Positions 9,789 through 40,003 of a stretch of 64,000 bases of DNA are shown here, piece after piece; the stretch's first letter is position 1; each line of letters opens with the position of its first letter. Made by a program: the position numbers and the translations under genes. The notes below the pieces were generated by a model, which saw only the letters and a list, made by a program, of their open reading frames with translations, was not told the origin of the DNA and ran no database searches. The stretch lies in the sequence record SRR22947727_2503. The stretch is one strand, 5' to 3'.

Positions 9789-9874
9789 GGCTCTGTGGCG
9801 GAATTGGTAGACGCTGCGGATTTAAAATCCGTTGATCCTAGATCGTGAGGGTTCGATCCCCTCCAGAGCTACCA
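9789..9874 (+). tRNA. tRNA-Leu(TAA)
   Basis: GGCTCTG/CAGAGCT acceptor, GCGGA-TT-TAA-AA-TCCGT anticodon arm, long variable arm, TTCGATC loop, encoded CCA. Confidence 0.95.
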
Positions 9875-9879
9875 CTTAA

Positions 9880-9954
9880 GACCCGTTCGTCTAATGGTTA
9901 GGACTCCAGATTTTCATTCTGGCAATAGGGGTTCGATCCCCCTACGGGTTGCCA
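9880..9954 (+). tRNA. tRNA-Glu(TTC)
   Basis: GACCCGT/ACGGGTT acceptor, CCAGA-TT-TTC-AT-TCTGG, encoded CCA. Confidence 0.95.
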
Positions 9955-9977
9955 ACTTTAAAAAATACTAATAAAAA

Positions 9978-10322
9978 ATGAGACTAAGTAAAGCATTATT
10001 TACACTTGTAGCTTTAGTAGGCTTAACAACAGTAGTATTAGGAGAAACTAAATATACTTCAATAATGACTGGAGTATCAGTTGGCGAAGGTAGAATTCAT
10101 GTCTGGGAGGTATTGACAAAAACATTTAAAGCGTCTCAAATCCGTATTAAAAAAGGAGAAGAGCATAAGCCTATTAGATGGGCTACAATTCCGAGCTATG
10201 TGATTGTAACGTTTACATCTAAAAATGATAAGATCACAAGATCACAAGTAGAGAAAGCAGTTAAAGCTCCTCCTGAATCTAAAGAGCGCTATCTAGTGTG
10301 GAGGTTAGAGAAAGTGAAGTAA
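9978..10322 (+). CDS. Hypothetical exported protein
   Basis: Signal-peptide-like N-terminus. Confidence 0.6.
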   Translation: MRLSKALFTLVALVGLTTVVLGETKYTSIMTGVSVGEGRIHVWEVLTKTFKASQIRIKKGEEHKPIRWATIPSYVIVTFTSKNDKITRSQVEKAVKAPPESKERYLVWRLEKVK

Positions 10323-10340
10323 AAAGAATTTATATTTAAT

Positions 10341-10416
10341 GCGCTTGTAGCTCAGTGGTTAGAGCAGGGGTCTCATAAACCCTTGGTCGTGAGTTCGAAT
10401 CTCACCGGGCGCACCA
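10341..10416 (+). tRNA. tRNA with CAT anticodon (elongator Met or Ile2)
   Basis: GCGCTTG/CGGGCGC acceptor, GGGGT-CT-CAT-AA-ACCCT, TTCGAAT loop, CCA; G1-C72 is paired so not an initiator. Confidence 0.93.
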
Positions 10417-26428: not shown

Positions 26429-26507
26429 CGTAAGTCGTTGATACTCAAGGAGTTACGGGCGGCGGCGGGGCGCTTCGCCGTAACTCGTTGATACTCAGTG
26501 AGTTACA
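26429..26507. repeat. 79-bp double-palindrome element, copy 9 (G-rich core)
   Basis: Same geometry. Confidence 0.95.
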
Positions 26508-26553
26508 GCGTTTTTTTCATAGCATAAAAACTCAACGTGTCAAGTATTTTTTT

Positions 26554-26619
26554 TGGTGGATGGCGGGGGGATCGAACCCCCATCCGAGACTCGCGTCTCG
26601 TCGAAACCATTAGCCACCC
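26554..26619 (-). ncRNA. Mini-tmRNA: isolated tRNA-like domain without mRNA-like domain (ssrA-like)
   Basis: GGGUGGC-UAAUGGUUUCGA-CGAGAC-GCGA-GUCUCG-GAU-GGGGG-UUCGAUC-CCCCC-GCCAUCC-A-CCA; G3.U70, A73, stemless D-loop ending UCGA. Confidence 0.85.
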
Positions 26620-26625
26620 AAACTT

Positions 26626-26850
26626 TCACTTGCCGTAAATCGAGCGTAGTTCCCAACTCGCTTCGTTCACGATTTCCGCAGTCACGCTCTGCGGATTCTT
26701 GCACGCTTCGGGAAGACCCTTGCGGATGATGCGCTTCAACTTACGCACACGCATGTATTCCCCAATGTGATGAGGGAATAGAATGGGATAAGTGAGAATC
26801 AAGATAGCTTTTCCCATCGGGGATTGATATTTAAAATTGTGGAGATTCAT
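26626..26850 (-). CDS. Hypothetical protein immediately upstream of the mini-tmRNA
   Basis: Start MNLHNF; stop 6 nt before the RNA 5' end. Confidence 0.6.
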   Translation of the reverse strand: MNLHNFKYQSPMGKAILILTYPILFPHHIGEYMRVRKLKRIIRKGLPEACKNPQSVTAEIVNEASWELRSIYGK

Positions 26851-26854
26851 GGTG

Positions 26855-27037
26855 TTAGTGTGAGAGATTGAGAGACTCAAGAGAAACTTCTTTTTCTTCT
26901 CCGTTATTGAATGATATCCAAGCGCTGTTGTCTTGTTGGAATGTCTCATGGACTAAGACGGTTTGGCCTTGGTAATTAGCGAAGAACTCTTCGCAAGAAA
27001 CATTAGCTAACTGGCTGATTGTGTTTTGGTCTGTCAT
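26855..27037 (-). CDS. Hypothetical protein
   Basis: 60-aa ORF. Confidence 0.6.
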   Translation of the reverse strand: MTDQNTISQLANVSCEEFFANYQGQTVLVHETFQQDNSAWISFNNGEEKEVSLESLNLSH

Positions 27038-27060
27038 GTGTATGTTCTACTTTATTTTTT

Positions 27061-27294
27061 TTAGCGAGGGCGGGAAGCATTAGCCGCTTTGCGGTTTTCA
27101 AACTTCTCAACACGAACGAACTTCCCTTTGGGGAAAGCCCAGTGTTCGCCATTCTTGATCCGCTCAACTCTTTGTGCGTTGTCGGTCTCGCCCCAAACAA
27201 ACTCGTTGCCTGTAGCGGATTTCGTGATGATGACGAAAAACGGGATTTCGTCTGCGTGTTTTACTTTTTCTCCGTTGGTGTATATCGTTGCCAT
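27061..27294 (-). CDS. Hypothetical protein
   Basis: TAAAAT-acacgc-ATG leaderless start. Confidence 0.65.
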   Translation of the reverse strand: MATIYTNGEKVKHADEIPFFVIITKSATGNEFVWGETDNAQRVERIKNGEHWAFPKGKFVRVEKFENRKAANASRPR

Positions 27295-27358: not shown

Positions 27359-27547
27359 TTAGGCGAGGAATCTGGGGTCTTGCTTCGGTTGCTCAGGCAC
27401 ATCCGCGAAAGCCTCTTGAAATTCTTTCTGGAGTTCTTGGCATTCTTTCTGGAACTGACCAGAAACCTGCACGGTTTCTTCTGCCATTTTGTTCCATGCT
27501 TCTTCTGCTTTGGCCATTGCTGCGAGGGCTTCTTCGGTCGCTGTCAT
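27359..27547 (-). CDS. Small helical protein, paralog of 24019-24162
   Basis: MTATEEALAAMAKAEEAWNKM...VSGQFQKECQELQ; TAAAAT-acacgc-ATG. Confidence 0.75.
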   Translation of the reverse strand: MTATEEALAAMAKAEEAWNKMAEETVQVSGQFQKECQELQKEFQEAFADVPEQPKQDPRFLA

Positions 27548-27865
27548 GCGTGTATTTTATCACAGATCCGCACGAATTAAAAGCTTTTTTTACGTCTAAA
27601 ATGCTTTTTTTTTGACCTGTCATACAGCATACCCACCCCATAGCACCCACCCCATTTTTTTAAAATTTTGATCCCTAATACACGCGCAAAGTCGGGGGGG
27701 GAGTCTTTTTTCAAAATCTAAACCATTAAATTATAACAGTTAGGCGTTGGATGGAAAAAAATGGCGGGGTTATTTTGGGGGAAAGTGCATGCCCAAGAAA
27801 AACCAGAATAAAAAAATAAACTAATATGCCGCGAATATAATACATAAAAACGTGTAGTATAAAGT

Positions 27866-29480: not shown

Positions 29481-29804
29481 ATGAGTCACATATTTTGTTA
29501 TAGTTGTGGGGTTAAGATTGAATATAATTTTGCTAAACCTAATTTTTGTTCTAAATGCGGGGCAAGTTTTGGAGGCGAGCAGCAATCTCAAGCTGCGGTG
29601 GAGCAAGTTCCCAATCAAACCAAAGCCTCTGTAGTTTCGGATGACGAAACTGATGCAGAGTTCGTTCCGCAACTAAGAGGGTTGCAGGTCGAAATTGAAA
29701 AACCTAAAACCTTCACCATTGGCTCTTTAGCGGGTCAAAATACACCTCCCAACTATAAAGGTCAGGGATCTTACGACTTGAATGATTTCACTTCTAAACC
29801 TTAA
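29481..29804 (+). CDS. Zinc-ribbon protein
   Basis: CYSCG...FCSKCG. Confidence 0.7.
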   Translation: MSHIFCYSCGVKIEYNFAKPNFCSKCGASFGGEQQSQAAVEQVPNQTKASVVSDDETDAEFVPQLRGLQVEIEKPKTFTIGSLAGQNTPPNYKGQGSYDLNDFTSKP

Positions 29805-30481
29805 TGCCTGAAAAGAAGAAGTATGAAGACTACCAAGATATCATAGATCGAGCTGTTAAAAAGCAGAGATCAAGGTGGCGCTTAGACGCTATCAAGTGGT
29901 TTGACTTTGAGGATGTCGAACAGGTGGTAAAATCGCACATCGCCCAAAAGTGGCACATGTGGGATCAGTCTCGGCCATTGGAGCCGTGGCTTAGTCGTGT
30001 AATCACCAATAGGATGTGGAACCTTATAAGAAACCATTATGGATCTTATATCAAACCTTGTTCGACATGCATACATGCGCGGGATGAATCATGTGCCAAG
30101 ACGATAAGTGGTAACCAAGATGTTTCGTGCAAAGATTATGCTAAGTGGTCAAAGAAGAAAAAATTTGGACTAGAATTGAAAACTGCATCTAGTCTGGATG
30201 ATACTGAGCATGTTATAAACGTTAAGTGTAATTCGTATTTTGATTATGATGCTGATACACAGAAGCTTAACGATAAAATGCGAAAAAAACTTGGAGAGAA
30301 ACAATACGGGGCATATCATATGTTATATTTCGAGGATTGTACAGAAGAAGATGTAGCAAAGTATATGGGGTATAAACTGTCTGATACTAATCGTAAGATT
30401 GGCTACAGACAAGTAAAGAATCTCAAGTGTAAATTTCATAAGATTGCAGTAAAAATTTTAAAAGATGGAAGGGGTTGGTAA
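29804..30481 (+). CDS. RNA polymerase sigma-70-like factor
   Basis: FEDVEQ...WDQSRPLEPWLSRVITNRMWNLIR (region 2); C-terminal HTH EDVAKYMGY. Confidence 0.7.
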   Translation: MPEKKKYEDYQDIIDRAVKKQRSRWRLDAIKWFDFEDVEQVVKSHIAQKWHMWDQSRPLEPWLSRVITNRMWNLIRNHYGSYIKPCSTCIHARDESCAKTISGNQDVSCKDYAKWSKKKKFGLELKTASSLDDTEHVINVKCNSYFDYDADTQKLNDKMRKKLGEKQYGAYHMLYFEDCTEEDVAKYMGYKLSDTNRKIGYRQVKNLKCKFHKIAVKILKDGRGW

Positions 30482-31530
30482 TGGATTTAACAGATGATCA
30501 AAAAGACTATATAAAAAACAATGTGAATAAAGTCACAAATTTAAATGAACTCACCCAAAAATGTTTTAGGGATGATGATTTAGATGGCCGCACAAAGGAG
30601 GGGCGAGCTGTTCGCAAATACTTAATAGAGAATAATATTGATTATAAAACAACCCGCCGCAAACCACAGGACAAAATCGAACTAAACGATTCCCAAAAAG
30701 AGTTCATTATCCAGCAAGCTCAGGAAGGGATGTCGTCGTTGGAGATTGCCAAGCTTATATTTCCAGAAAAGAGAGTAAAGCCACTAAGCAATGAGCAGAG
30801 AACGGTCCTCGCACACATCAACGAGGTCAATCCCGATTTCGTTCCATCGCAAGACTCCGCTGCCGTAAATGATTACGTCCCGCCCAAAAGCCCAAGTCGT
30901 GTAGTAAAGAAAATCAATGATGCTACAGGATTAGAGTTAAATGATGGCAAACTAAACAGGCAAAAGCAAATCTGTGTAGACAAGCTCCAAATCAATCTAT
31001 CCAATAGTAGATTTTTGAAAATCATCAATAATTATCTTAATAAGCCAGACAGAGAGTTATTCGAACAGGAATTCATCCGTTTGAGTTGGGACAAGCCTGA
31101 TTTAACCGCAGACGAACTCAACCTATACCTTAACGTCTGCAAAGAGGTTATTAATTTGGAGGTTGTGTCTGCTCACCTAAACAAGCTTAACGACATGTTT
31201 GACGTTGCTGATGACCAGACCGAAATGACCGTACGTCTCGCGGAGATCATCAAAGCTAAATCACAAGAGTATCATCAATGTGAAACCCGCATTGAGAATT
31301 TAACGAAGAAGCTGCAAGGTGACCGTGCTGAACGCATGAAGAAGTCCAGCAAGAACAATGCGTCATTTTTATCCATCGTTCAGATGTTTCAAGAAGAAGA
31401 AGAGCGGGAGAATATGGTTCGCATGGCAGAAATGCAAAAAAAGCTAATTAAAGAAGAGGCTGAGCGGATGGAAGGTATGGCAGAGTGGAAAGCGCGAATC
31501 TTAGGTATTAGTCAGGACGATGCAATTTGA
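30481..31530 (+). CDS. Hypothetical helical/coiled-coil protein (candidate terminase small subunit)
   Basis: HTH-like MSSLEIAKLIF plus coiled coil; lies near terL. Confidence 0.45.
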   Translation: MDLTDDQKDYIKNNVNKVTNLNELTQKCFRDDDLDGRTKEGRAVRKYLIENNIDYKTTRRKPQDKIELNDSQKEFIIQQAQEGMSSLEIAKLIFPEKRVKPLSNEQRTVLAHINEVNPDFVPSQDSAAVNDYVPPKSPSRVVKKINDATGLELNDGKLNRQKQICVDKLQINLSNSRFLKIINNYLNKPDRELFEQEFIRLSWDKPDLTADELNLYLNVCKEVINLEVVSAHLNKLNDMFDVADDQTEMTVRLAEIIKAKSQEYHQCETRIENLTKKLQGDRAERMKKSSKNNASFLSIVQMFQEEEERENMVRMAEMQKKLIKEEAERMEGMAEWKARILGISQDDAI

Positions 31531-32536
31531 ATGTAAAGAGTGTGGCCAGACGTTCGATACGCAACGTGGTCTACATATGCACATCAAGAAGCACGATATG
31601 CTTCTTGGTGATTACTATGTCAAACACTATCCACGTTTCGACAAGCTGACTGAAAAGCCTATCCAATTCAAAAACGCCAAACAGTACTTCTCTACAGATT
31701 TCAACACAACCAAGAACATGAACCTCTGGTTTGAGAAAGCGCCCAAAGATGAGGTAAAAAAATATATTTTGGAGAAATTTAAAAAAAGAATAGAAAACAA
31801 GAACCTCAAACACGCTCCATCGAGCCTGTATCTGAAGACGGGCGATTGGCCTACGCTGGACATCATAAAAAAGCTGTTCGGCGGTTACAACGCATTCTGT
31901 GAGCAAGTCGGGGTAAGTCCTGCGTATGGGAGTAATGTATGTAAAGAGTTTTTTGAAGATTATAGCAGTGAAGAGGTTTGGATCGATACAAGAGAGAATA
32001 AACCTCTAAACTTTAAACATTCTTATGTTTTTAAACTAGACTTTGGTGATTATACCTTACCACCGAAAAACTATACCCATACTCATGCAGAAAGAAAGTC
32101 ATTCCAAGATTTTGCCGCTACTGTAACAAATGGCTATGCTAGGTTTATTAGGGAGATAGAAAGATGCCAAAGTTTGGGGTGTTTCTTATTTATTGTTGTA
32201 GAGGCGGATTATAATCAAATTTATAAAACAAATAGTGCTGCTTACAAAAAATTCAATATGGGATTTGTGTTTAGCAGAATGAGATCTATCGAGGCGCAAT
32301 TTAGTGACTGTTGTCAATTTGTGTTTAGTGGTTCTAGAGAAGGCAGTGAGGAGTTAATACCCAAGATCCTCTGCTGTGGTAAGAAGCTGTGGAATGTTGA
32401 CTTACAATATTTTTGGGAAAAGGAATTAGAAAAAAATGGCTTGGATAGAAGGCAATCAAGACCTGTACAAGAAGTTCAAAGAAGTAAACGAAGAGATACT
32501 TTCCAAAAAAGGATACATCGAAGAAGGAGAGGCTAA
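31520..32536 (+). CDS. C2H2 zinc finger plus ERCC4-like nuclease domain protein
   Basis: CKECG..F...RGLHMHIKKH; IDTRENKPL, LDFGDY, ERKS..DF. Confidence 0.7.
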   Translation: MQFECKECGQTFDTQRGLHMHIKKHDMLLGDYYVKHYPRFDKLTEKPIQFKNAKQYFSTDFNTTKNMNLWFEKAPKDEVKKYILEKFKKRIENKNLKHAPSSLYLKTGDWPTLDIIKKLFGGYNAFCEQVGVSPAYGSNVCKEFFEDYSSEEVWIDTRENKPLNFKHSYVFKLDFGDYTLPPKNYTHTHAERKSFQDFAATVTNGYARFIREIERCQSLGCFLFIVVEADYNQIYKTNSAAYKKFNMGFVFSRMRSIEAQFSDCCQFVFSGSREGSEELIPKILCCGKKLWNVDLQYFWEKELEKNGLDRRQSRPVQEVQRSKRRDTFQKRIHRRRRG

Positions 32537-38875: not shown

Positions 38876-40003
38876 ATGAAAATCACTTTAAAAAGAACTC
38901 CAGAACAAATTGAGTTGGTTAAAGCTATGGCTTCTCGTAACCGCACTGTCGCTTACGAAGCTCAAGTAGCTCTTGCTGAGTTTATTGGACCTGTGCTTGC
39001 AGAGGTTATCAATCAAGCTCCTACGCTTTCTAACCTTTTCACCACGCTTCAGTTTAACGCTGATGACAATCCTTCGATCCCTCTTGATCTCTATCATGAC
39101 ATCAATGACGAAGATTACATCAAGGTTTACAGCCAGTCTCATGCTGGTGGTCTTCCTACCAATCAGGTGCTTCCTACTGCGTCCGAGATGAAAATCGCTA
39201 CCTACGGTCTTGATACCGCTGTTAGCTTTGATCGTCGTTACGCAGCTAAGTCCCGCATGGATGTTGTCTCTAAGACCTTCACCCGTGCTGCTCAGGAAAT
39301 CCTTGCTAAGCAGGAGACTACCTCCGCTAGCTTGATTATGGGAGCGCTTTCTGAGGCTTCGACCAACAGTGTTGATCACGTTTTTGAAAACGGTCATGGC
39401 AGCTTGAACTTCGTCCTTGACGACATTAACAAGCTTATGACTAAGGCTAAGCGTATTCAGTCTTCTTTCCTTGGTGGATCACCTGCTGGTGGAACCGCTA
39501 AAGGAATTACTGACCTTATCGTTTCTCCAGAAGTTGTCGAAAAGCTTCGTGCTATGGCTTACAATCCAATCAACACCTCTAACGGTCCTGCTGGTAGTGG
39601 TGGAACTGGGTCTGATGGTGTTGCTGCTCCTGATGAGCTTCGCATGAGCGTTTATAACAGCGCTGGCCTTCCTGAGTTCTACGGCATTTCCATCATGGAG
39701 ATTCTTGAGCTTGGAGCTAATAAGAGGTTCACTAACGTGTTTGATGCCGCTCAGGCATCTGGCGCTTCTACTGGAGCTGCGTTGTTCACTACTGGCGACG
39801 ATCTTGTTGTTGGTATCGACCGCTCCCGTGAGTCCCTTATCCGTGCTGTTGCTGTTGATGAAGATTCTGGTGGTGAGTTTAGCCTCATCGCTGATGATCA
39901 GTACAGCATTCGCCAGCAGAAGATCGGATACTTCGGATCGCTTGAAGAGGGCCGCATGGTTCTTGACAATCGCGCTCTTGTCGGATGTGTCGTTTCTGCT
40001 TAA
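38876..40003 (+). CDS. Major capsid protein
   Basis: 375 aa at the end of the head operon, strong codon bias, followed by a strong terminator. Confidence 0.8.
   Translation: MKITLKRTPEQIELVKAMASRNRTVAYEAQVALAEFIGPVLAEVINQAPTLSNLFTTLQFNADDNPSIPLDLYHDINDEDYIKVYSQSHAGGLPTNQVLPTASEMKIATYGLDTAVSFDRRYAAKSRMDVVSKTFTRAAQEILAKQETTSASLIMGALSEASTNSVDHVFENGHGSLNFVLDDINKLMTKAKRIQSSFLGGSPAGGTAKGITDLIVSPEVVEKLRAMAYNPINTSNGPAGSGGTGSDGVAAPDELRMSVYNSAGLPEFYGISIMEILELGANKRFTNVFDAAQASGASTGAALFTTGDDLVVGIDRSRESLIRAVAVDEDSGGEFSLIADDQYSIRQQKIGYFGSLEEGRMVLDNRALVGCVVSA

Follow-up and report, generated by a model that had tools for sequence, protein, structure and literature searches.

On the evidence of its sequence, the 66-nt element on the minus strand of a 64,000-nt stretch of DNA (record SRR22947727_2503; the whole stretch is called the window here) is a genuine phage gene for a tmRNA without coding sequence (CDS), the form described as 'TLD-only' because only the tRNA-like domain (TLD) is present. 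The gene belongs to a known kind, since a phage TLD-only RNA has already been published for the phage DS6A, and that of the window is a compact further member. The RNA probably interferes with the rescue-and-tag system of the host.

Origin of the window

The source of the window is an uncultured marine phage. The DNA carries a large terminase, a weak portal match, a 2312-aa tape measure protein and a tail fibre, along with both subunits of ribonucleotide reductase, ThyX, PhoH, lysozyme, amidase and three tRNA genes. The terminase matched cultured phages at 25% identity or less only. In the search for a cultured relative, neither the DNA of positions 26000-27200 nor the 375-aa ORF at 38876-40003 gave any match to cultured phages.

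Some other features of the window were also recorded. The tRNA genes, for Leu(UAA), Glu(UUC) and Met(CAU), form a cluster at 9789-10416 on the plus strand, 16 kb from the mini-tmRNA. A weak match to sigma-70 region 2 was found at 29804-30481 (E = 0.001, below the cut-off), and 31520-32536 encodes an ERCC4-type nuclease with an N-terminal C2H2 zinc finger, just before the terminase.

Sequence and fold of the element

The minus strand from 26619 to 26554 reads GGGUGGC UAAUGGUUUCGA CGAGAC GCGA GUCUCG GAU GGGGG UUCGAUC CCCCC GCCAUCC A CCA, which matches exactly the sequence quoted in a preliminary description of this DNA. The parts of the gene are as follows.

26554-26619, minus strand: whole mini-tmRNA gene (TLD-only, CDS-less), 66 nt, 5' end at 26619
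26613-26619, minus strand: 5' strand of the acceptor stem, GGGUGGC, pairing 7/7 with 26558-26564; G3 at 26617
26601-26612, minus strand: stemless D-loop UAAUGGUUUCGA, 12 nt, ending in UCGA
26585-26600, minus strand: P2 hairpin CGAGAC-GCGA-GUCUCG, 6-bp helix with GCGA loop, in the place of the message and pseudoknots of tmRNA
26582-26584, minus strand: GAU linker from P2 to the T arm (read from the sequence)
26565-26581, minus strand: T arm GGGGG-UUCGAUC-CCCCC, 5-bp stem with UUCGAUC loop (sequence and fold)
26558-26564, minus strand: 3' strand of the acceptor stem, GCCAUCC; U70 at 26560
26557, minus strand: discriminator A73 (read from the sequence)
26556-26554, minus strand: encoded CCA (read from the sequence)

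Only 16 nt, a 6-bp hairpin with its 4-nt loop, stand between the D-loop and the linker, and the resume codon, the tag reading frame with its stop and the pseudoknots are all absent from the 66 nt. The fold that had been drawn earlier, with acceptor, stemless D-loop, P2, GAU, T arm and CCA, was recovered by RNAfold in the minimum-energy as well as the centroid structure, except that 26570 pairs with 26564 in place of the pair 26613-26564. The energy of this fold is -31.5 kcal/mol, against a mean of -23.7 +/- 2.9 kcal/mol for shuffled sequences (z = -2.7), and 1 of 200 shuffles was equally stable.

Comparison with tmRNA and with published tagless forms

The record of E. coli K-12 ssrA (L366) starts with GGGGCUG AUUCUGGAUUCGA CGGGAU and ends with UUUCG GAC GCGGG UUCAACU CCCGC CAGCUCC A CCA, and the E. 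coli ends given in the preliminary description agree with it. The 360-nt tmRNA of a bacterial genome (G001) starts with GGGGGCG UCAUGGUUUCGA CUGGAUA and ends with UAUCCAG GAC AGGGG UUCGACU CCCCU CGCCUCC A CCA; its D-loop UCAUGGUUUCGA has the same length of 12 nt as that of the phage element, with equal letters at 10 of the 12 positions. The phage element is collinear with both ends of the tmRNA of E. coli K-12 and of the 360-nt and 386-nt tmRNAs of two bacterial genomes. The order held in common with full-length tmRNA runs from a 7-bp acceptor stem with G3.U70 through a 12-nt D-loop ending in GGUUUCGA to the C-G pair that opens P2, and on the 3' side through a three-base GAY linker and the T arm to A73 and CCA. 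Full-length tmRNA (RF00023) has in addition about 300 nt of resume codon, tag ORF and pseudoknots, whereas the phage element has none of the three. The earlier reading of the element as the tRNA-like domain of tmRNA without a tag frame is borne out by this collinearity, and also by the family model described below, which finds the gene of DS6A.

The truncated TLD constructs used for SmpB co-crystals have a shortened P2 with a tetraloop cap. These constructs are man-made, whereas the phage element is natural and under selection, with a likewise short P2 closed by a tetraloop.

The preliminary description had stated that no phage example of a natural tagless tmRNA was known, and this has to be corrected. 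Mycobacterium phage DS6A is listed with a '(TLD only)' tmRNA by Hudson, Lau & Williams 2014 (PMC4131195; tmRNA Website tmID 11587). The excerpts of the 2025 tmRNA database paper (PMC11915505) give 79 phage sequences and 9 'standard, no CDS', and DS6A is the only CDS-less phage case named in these excerpts. The element of the window is of the same type, being a complete one-piece TLD with a self-closed P2 and no coding part. Like the RNA of the window, that of DS6A is phage-encoded and has G3.U70, A73, a tmRNA-type D-loop, a P2 hairpin, a T arm and no tag frame, and it starts 10 nt after the annotated ORF gp33, as against 6 nt after an ORF stop in the window. It differs in being longer (about 82 nt, with a longer P2 hairpin, against 66 nt), in its D-loop (GGUCGA against UUCGA), in its linker (CAC against GAU) and in its end (CTA against CCA). 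DS6A itself is a temperate, actinobacterial phage unrelated to that of the window, and sequence descent linking the two is not detectable.

Tagless forms are also known from organelles. The CDS-less tmRNAs of Mallomonadaceae plastids, about 65 bp according to the excerpts of PMC11915505, have the size class and the loss of message in common with the phage element as far as can be compared by description only; they are organellar and came about by reductive evolution, unlike the phage element. The mitochondrial tmRNA of jakobids and oomycetes (RF02544) also has no tag frame, but it is usually permuted and organellar. A full-text literature search gave no paper besides PMC4131195 on mini, TLD-only or tagless tmRNA, and a wider search gave no marine phage forms.

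Three other identities, namely a tRNA, a two-piece tmRNA and an att-site scar, are excluded by the features tested. The element is not a tRNA (RF00005), having no D stem, a middle hairpin loop of 4 nt instead of 7, and no tRNA call by ARAGORN or Rfam. It is also not a two-piece permuted tmRNA (RF04321), as one continuous hairpin closes P2 and the tmRNA_permuted model gives 12.6 bits against a cut-off of 47. The att-site scar is discussed below along with the flanking regions.

Detection by standard programs and by family models

ARAGORN, including its tmRNA mode, called none of 29 family elements as tmRNA, that of the window included, and one of them was miscalled as tRNA-Arg. Rfam cmscan at gathering thresholds listed only the three tRNAs in the window and no tmRNA. 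The check with these two programs which had been proposed at the outset therefore did not call the element, and RF02544, proposed along with them, was not among the matches listed for the element region at E up to 10. In the E-value mode of Rfam (271 bases) the best match was beta_tmRNA with 16.9 bits (E = 0.0015, partial), and the tmRNA_permuted match mentioned above was also partial.

The curated cut-off of RF00023 is 47 bits. In a profile search of the relatives' sequences with this model, copies of the relatives, not the window's own copy, scored 53.8 and 49.5 bits (above the cut-off) and 43.5 bits (below it), with the whole model (1-374) aligned; the two copies above the cut-off each differ from that of the window by three letters. 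Mini forms in four bacterial assemblies scored 62.9-76.8 bits under RF00023.

Two covariance models of the family, R1 and R2, match the window once each, with 93.3 and 94.4 bits, the window's copy being in both seeds. The next matches of the two models in the window are the T arms of tRNAs with at most 16.5 bits. The TLD-only gene of DS6A, which is outside the seeds, was found by R1 with 30.4 bits (E = 7e-6) and by R2 with 43.1 bits (E = 7e-11; L228/JN698994, 28478-28560).

A sequence comparison of the 66-nt element with cultured phages yielded a single weak match, of 28 nt, in a Corynebacterium phage (E = 0.5). With two other family members as queries, most matches were either att-like 3' halves or the 3' ends of full tmRNAs already annotated, and in many mycobacteriophages only residues 33-67 of a family member are matched. 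A match in an Alcaligenes phage was rejected as a mini form, being weak (22 bits) with a mispaired acceptor stem.

A separate observation was made in Vibrio virus vB_VspP_SBP1 (MK301608, 8662-8736; L367:1459-1533), where tRNA-Ser is closely followed by a tRNA-like gene of 75 nt that lacks annotation. Its acceptor stem contains G3.U70, and A73, CCA and a T arm are likewise present, but the tmRNA D-loop is replaced by a plain joint of 9 nt, and the hairpin has 9 bp and a loop of 13 nt. R2 gives the gene 40.2 bits, its fold has a z of -3.95, and there is no ARAGORN call. It may encode an alanine-type tRNA-like RNA of a different sort, in a phage that is culturable.

The family and its covariation

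Viral contigs were searched with the pattern TTCGAC, 10-22 nt, GGAY, NN, GGGTTCRANNCCC. Pattern scans of this kind fix parts of the D-loop, linker and T arm and miss DS6A-like forms, so the counts given here are not frequencies. The pattern matched 60 loci with 36 different sequences. In 27 of the 36, a 7-nt stretch lying 11-13 nt upstream of P2 pairs 7/7 with the 3' acceptor strand, for which the chance is estimated at about 1% per match (ten offsets x (6/16)^7); the remaining nine either represent ssrA 3' ends or have no relation to the family. The 27 viral mini forms are 63-72 nt long, mostly 63-67 nt, and occur in many different genomic contexts. Their acceptor types include GGGUGGC (that of the window), GGGUAGC, GGGAGUG, GGGGGUG and GGGGAUG, plus single forms. 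P2 has 4-9 pairs in the family, its loop is not conserved (GCGA, GCAA, UUCG, GUUA and others), and the commonest family variant has a G-G mismatch in P2.

A scan of contigs of bacterial assemblies returned, among the matches listed, mostly true ssrA 3' ends and at least 3-4 mini-tmRNAs of 66-73 nt (L260/L352 in G002, L266/L355 in G001, L322/L354 in G003 and L250/L353 in G004). Two of these four assemblies, G001 and G003, also carry a normal tmRNA beside the mini form. The bins concerned are labelled Saccharibacteria and Akkermansiaceae, plus two others; their contigs are binned and may be prophage or mis-binned phage. The linker of the mini forms differs from that of bacterial tmRNA: under the same pattern, which allowed both GAU and GAC, the linker is GAU in 21 of the 27 viral mini forms, many of these being related to each other, against 2 of 80 bacterial tmRNA 3' ends among the matches listed (L230-L349), the other 78 of which have GAC.

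Base pairs were counted in two ways. The anchored count used 31 unique sequences, namely the 27 viral forms, the window and three from bacterial assemblies; it selects 7/7 acceptor pairing by construction, hence its acceptor figures are not independent. G1-C72, G2-C71, G3.U70 and A73 are unchanged in 31/31 sequences, and none of them is fixed by the search pattern. G3.U70 is the identity element of alanyl-tRNA synthetase (AlaRS), and the alanine identity elements pointed out in the preliminary description are thus present in the window and invariant across the family. GGUUUCGA of the D-loop is present in 24/31 and CCA is encoded in 18/31. Acceptor pairs 4-7 show 13-18 double changes each, with 12 different stems. 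The two outer pairs of the T stem, which the pattern leaves free, are formed in 62/62 cells with 18 double changes, and the basal five pairs of P2 in 149/155 cells with many double changes. Altogether 366/372 cells are paired in register, against 157-194 of 372 when the partners are slid by 1-3 positions.

The second count was made on a structural alignment fitted with a model; its 35 rows include DS6A and two of tRNA-Met. Here 97.4% of the cells are paired, whereas shuffles average 70.8 +/- 1.3%, none of 500 attaining 97.4%, and controls with slid partners give 47-58%. Both sides are changed in 164 cells against 51 in shuffles, double changes occur in 12 of the 18 pairs, and pair 3 is G-U in 33/33 non-tRNA rows. 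The compensatory changes in the acceptor and P2 stems that the preliminary description proposed to look for with a covariance model were thereby found. The acceptor counts of the model-fitted alignments are conservative because these alignments shift four GGGGGUG-type rows by 1-2 nt; the MAFFT alignment misplaced the 5' ends in 8 of 28 rows. Members of one subfamily are related to one another, and the independent events are therefore fewer than the cell counts would indicate. Acceptor pairs 4-7, the T stem and P2 covary strongly, and the helices are kept by compensatory change.

Genomic surroundings

The features that surround the RNA gene are given below.

26626-26949, minus strand: upstream 107-aa ORF, with its TGA stop at 26626-26628, 6 nt before the 5' end of the RNA
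27730-27757, minus strand: candidate operon promoter TTTCCA-16-TATAAT with TG before it, a match to the consensus
26421-26517, strand not assigned: 97-nt double-hairpin intergenic cassette downstream of the RNA gene, with three copies in the window and more in relatives

The 107-aa ORF has no Pfam or PHROG match, and a homologous ORF ends 6-7 nt upstream of the element in five related loci (L086, L094, L105, L119 and L215). With 6 nt between this stop codon and its start, the RNA gene has no room for a promoter of its own, and the proposal that the RNA is processed from an upstream operon fits this start. Promoter-like sites of the candidate's kind number 4 in the window against 3.8 in shuffles. 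An oligo-dT marine RNA library (X17) has a 272-nt contig on 26351-26621 that spans the whole element and ends 2 nt past its 5' end, with 12 differences and one gap, all outside the element. Four marine RNA libraries cover small shares of the stretch, and nothing follows from the parts left uncovered. All four consist of contigs from which start, end, strand and level are not readable; such contigs do not prove transcription, and that of X17 is at most a weak hint of it.

On the 3' side of the element the A of CCA is followed by seven more A, then by a TTGACA hexamer and then by the 97-nt cassette. The copies of this cassette (24246-24342, 25139-25235 and 26421-26517) are 72-84% alike and consist of two hairpins (GTAAC...TTGATACTCA...GTTAC) round a G+C-rich spacer, flanked by T or A runs. 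Related contigs hold further copies in both orientations, and a terminator-like site lies at 26480-26506 on the plus strand. It is possible that the cassette is a bidirectional terminator or a recombination joint of the mosaic small-gene region. Repeats are likewise seen here at the starts of small minus-strand ORFs and in the regions upstream of them, as a 57-nt pair (25022-25078 and 26304-26360, 86% identity) and a 149-nt pair (24029-24177 and 27414-27562, 73% identity), and the region therefore holds paralogous small-gene cassettes.

The close spacing behind an ORF is general in the family. In 21 of 28 judged contexts a same-strand ORF, called mechanically like all upstream ORFs of the family, ends -1 to 16 nt before the element, and in 18 the gap is 7 nt or less. 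At least 14 different upstream ORFs, among them gp33 of DS6A (gap 10, L228), show the short gap, and downstream gaps to the next ORF are much longer. The gap is 0 at L095, L137 and L211 and -1 at L121 and L136; in the last two, by the mechanical calls, a TAG stop ends with the G1 of the RNA, so that RNase P cleavage would leave a message without a complete stop codon. This arrangement would agree with a mainly cis-acting role, in which the tRNA-like 3' fold serves as an RNase P signal or 3' stabiliser of the upstream mRNA and has no trans function. For such a role any tRNA-like fold would do, yet GGUUUCGA, G3.U70 and A73 are kept, and some members lie 88-220 nt from the previous ORF, one of them (L169) with promoter-like hexamers just upstream. 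A mainly cis-acting role is accordingly held to be improbable.

The element was also compared with its flanking regions. In 24 related loci of the window's type the element is 94-97% identical, while the 200-nt flanks range from about 53-55% identity (unrelated) to 98%, and in one subgroup the likeness stops right after CCA. The element being kept while the flanks change, it is a discrete unit that has moved between contexts. Of 80 loci gathered via the terminase, 16 extend 5.9 kb or more upstream and so include the syntenic place; the element is present in 3 of these 16 and absent from 13, and is therefore dispensable. It is also absent from the DNA stretch compared in L017 and L023 (94% terminase identity).

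These flank data bear on the view that the element is an att-site remnant or a decaying fragment of host ssrA without function. It is true that ssrA 3' ends occur in phages, that pieces lacking the 5' strand were picked up by the patterns used here (for example L092, L144 and L165), and that the mycobacteriophage matches to residues 33-67 are of this nature. In the element, however, the 5' acceptor strand and the D-loop are present with 7/7 pairing, the family covaries, the flanks change around a conserved unit, and a Pfam scan of 50 ORFs, which did not extend to about 38 small mechanically called ones, turned up no integrase family. The flank and covariation data thus contradict the att-site scar of a host ssrA gene against which the preliminary description had cautioned, and a remnant of this type seems extremely improbable.

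No protein neighbour common to all subfamilies was found, and the ten neighbouring ORFs belong to no Pfam or PHROG family except for the lysozyme 2.7 kb downstream. No SmpB gene was found in three partial relatives. It follows that no phage protein partner travels with the element and that its partners must be host factors.

Proposed function of the RNA

The function that appears most likely from these data is a decoy-type competition, and it is rather probable that the RNA is an alanine-charged ligand of SmpB that competes with host tmRNA and thereby lowers or diverts trans-translation and ssrA tagging. The 66-nt RNA would be transcribed together with the upstream small ORFs, RNase P would cut its 5' end, and host exonucleases would trim the 3' end to CCA; members without encoded CCA would need the CCA-adding enzyme of the host. 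Host AlaRS would then charge the RNA with alanine, and host SmpB (and EF-Tu) would bind it. The charged RNA would compete with host tmRNA for SmpB and for stalled ribosomes, and trans-translation and ssrA tagging of the proteins made during infection would be reduced or diverted. A TLD-only RNA inhibited host tmRNA through SmpB in E. coli, as cited in the parts of PMC4131195 and PMC11915505 on this form, and the inhibition so cited did not need charging.

Taken together, the charging-independent inhibition cited and the invariant alanine identity set make a pure sponge model incomplete. Since G3.U70 and A73 do not vary, there is reason to hold that charging matters as well, and hence that the ribosome is also a site of action of the RNA. 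Tag-free rescue thus stays beside competition as a candidate role. The charged RNA would enter the stalled ribosome with SmpB and accept the nascent chain, which would help rescue instead of blocking it; the chain would then be released by host routes (ArfA/RF2, ArfB or peptidyl-tRNA hydrolase), or several alanines would be added. The phage would gain more free ribosomes, and its proteins would not be marked for proteolysis. G1-G2-G3.U70 and A73 are constant in 31/31 while the rest of the stem is variable, which therefore suggests selection on charging, and this would be needless for a mere SmpB sponge. The complete tmRNA genes of phages (excerpts of PMC9004378 and PMC11915505) indicate that extra rescue capacity can pay, and in mitochondria tmRNAs that have no tag frame are conserved alongside SmpB (excerpts of PMC11915505). 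On the other side, no release factor, ArfB-like or Pth-like gene was found among the 50 ORFs of the window scanned with Pfam, the one experiment in print, as cited in the parts of PMC4131195 and PMC11915505 on this form, shows inhibition of tmRNA and not rescue, and in the lack of a stop codon release would hang on unproven host routes. Tag-free rescue is on balance considered unlikely.

A more specific proposal, put forward as possible though doubtful, is that the mini-tmRNA, far from being a passive sponge for SmpB, is an obligatorily alanine-charged device that enters stalled ribosomes and gives tag-free rescue or repeated addition of alanine, coupled in cis to the preceding gene. Obligatory charging is suggested by the constancy of G1-G2-G3.U70 and A73 in the face of free covariation at acceptor pairs 4-7. 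If this were true, RNase P would cut the upstream mRNA 0-7 nt after the stop codon, and at L121 and L136 the cut inside the stop codon would turn the upstream message into a near-non-stop substrate.

The RNA could also act as a decoy outside trans-translation, directed at some other host machinery that recognises tRNA or tmRNA, for example RNase R or a defence nuclease cutting anticodons or tmRNA. This is suggested by analogy, as phage proteins and defence systems that handle tRNA or tmRNA fragments are in print (excerpts of PMC11662646), and the gene lies in an accessory, mosaic region. The sequence contains no pointer to such a system, however, and the conserved features are those for AlaRS and the tmRNA elbow, so this role is regarded as very improbable.

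Significance of the element

Surveys of phage tmRNA that are based on ARAGORN cannot see the mini form of 63-72 nt. The natural variation of the family, with its fixed and covarying positions, provides a ready-made mutational map of a minimal ligand of AlaRS and SmpB. The 27 viral mini forms suggest that interference with ribosome rescue, or its diversion, by a minimal RNA is a recurrent strategy of phages and not a single oddity.
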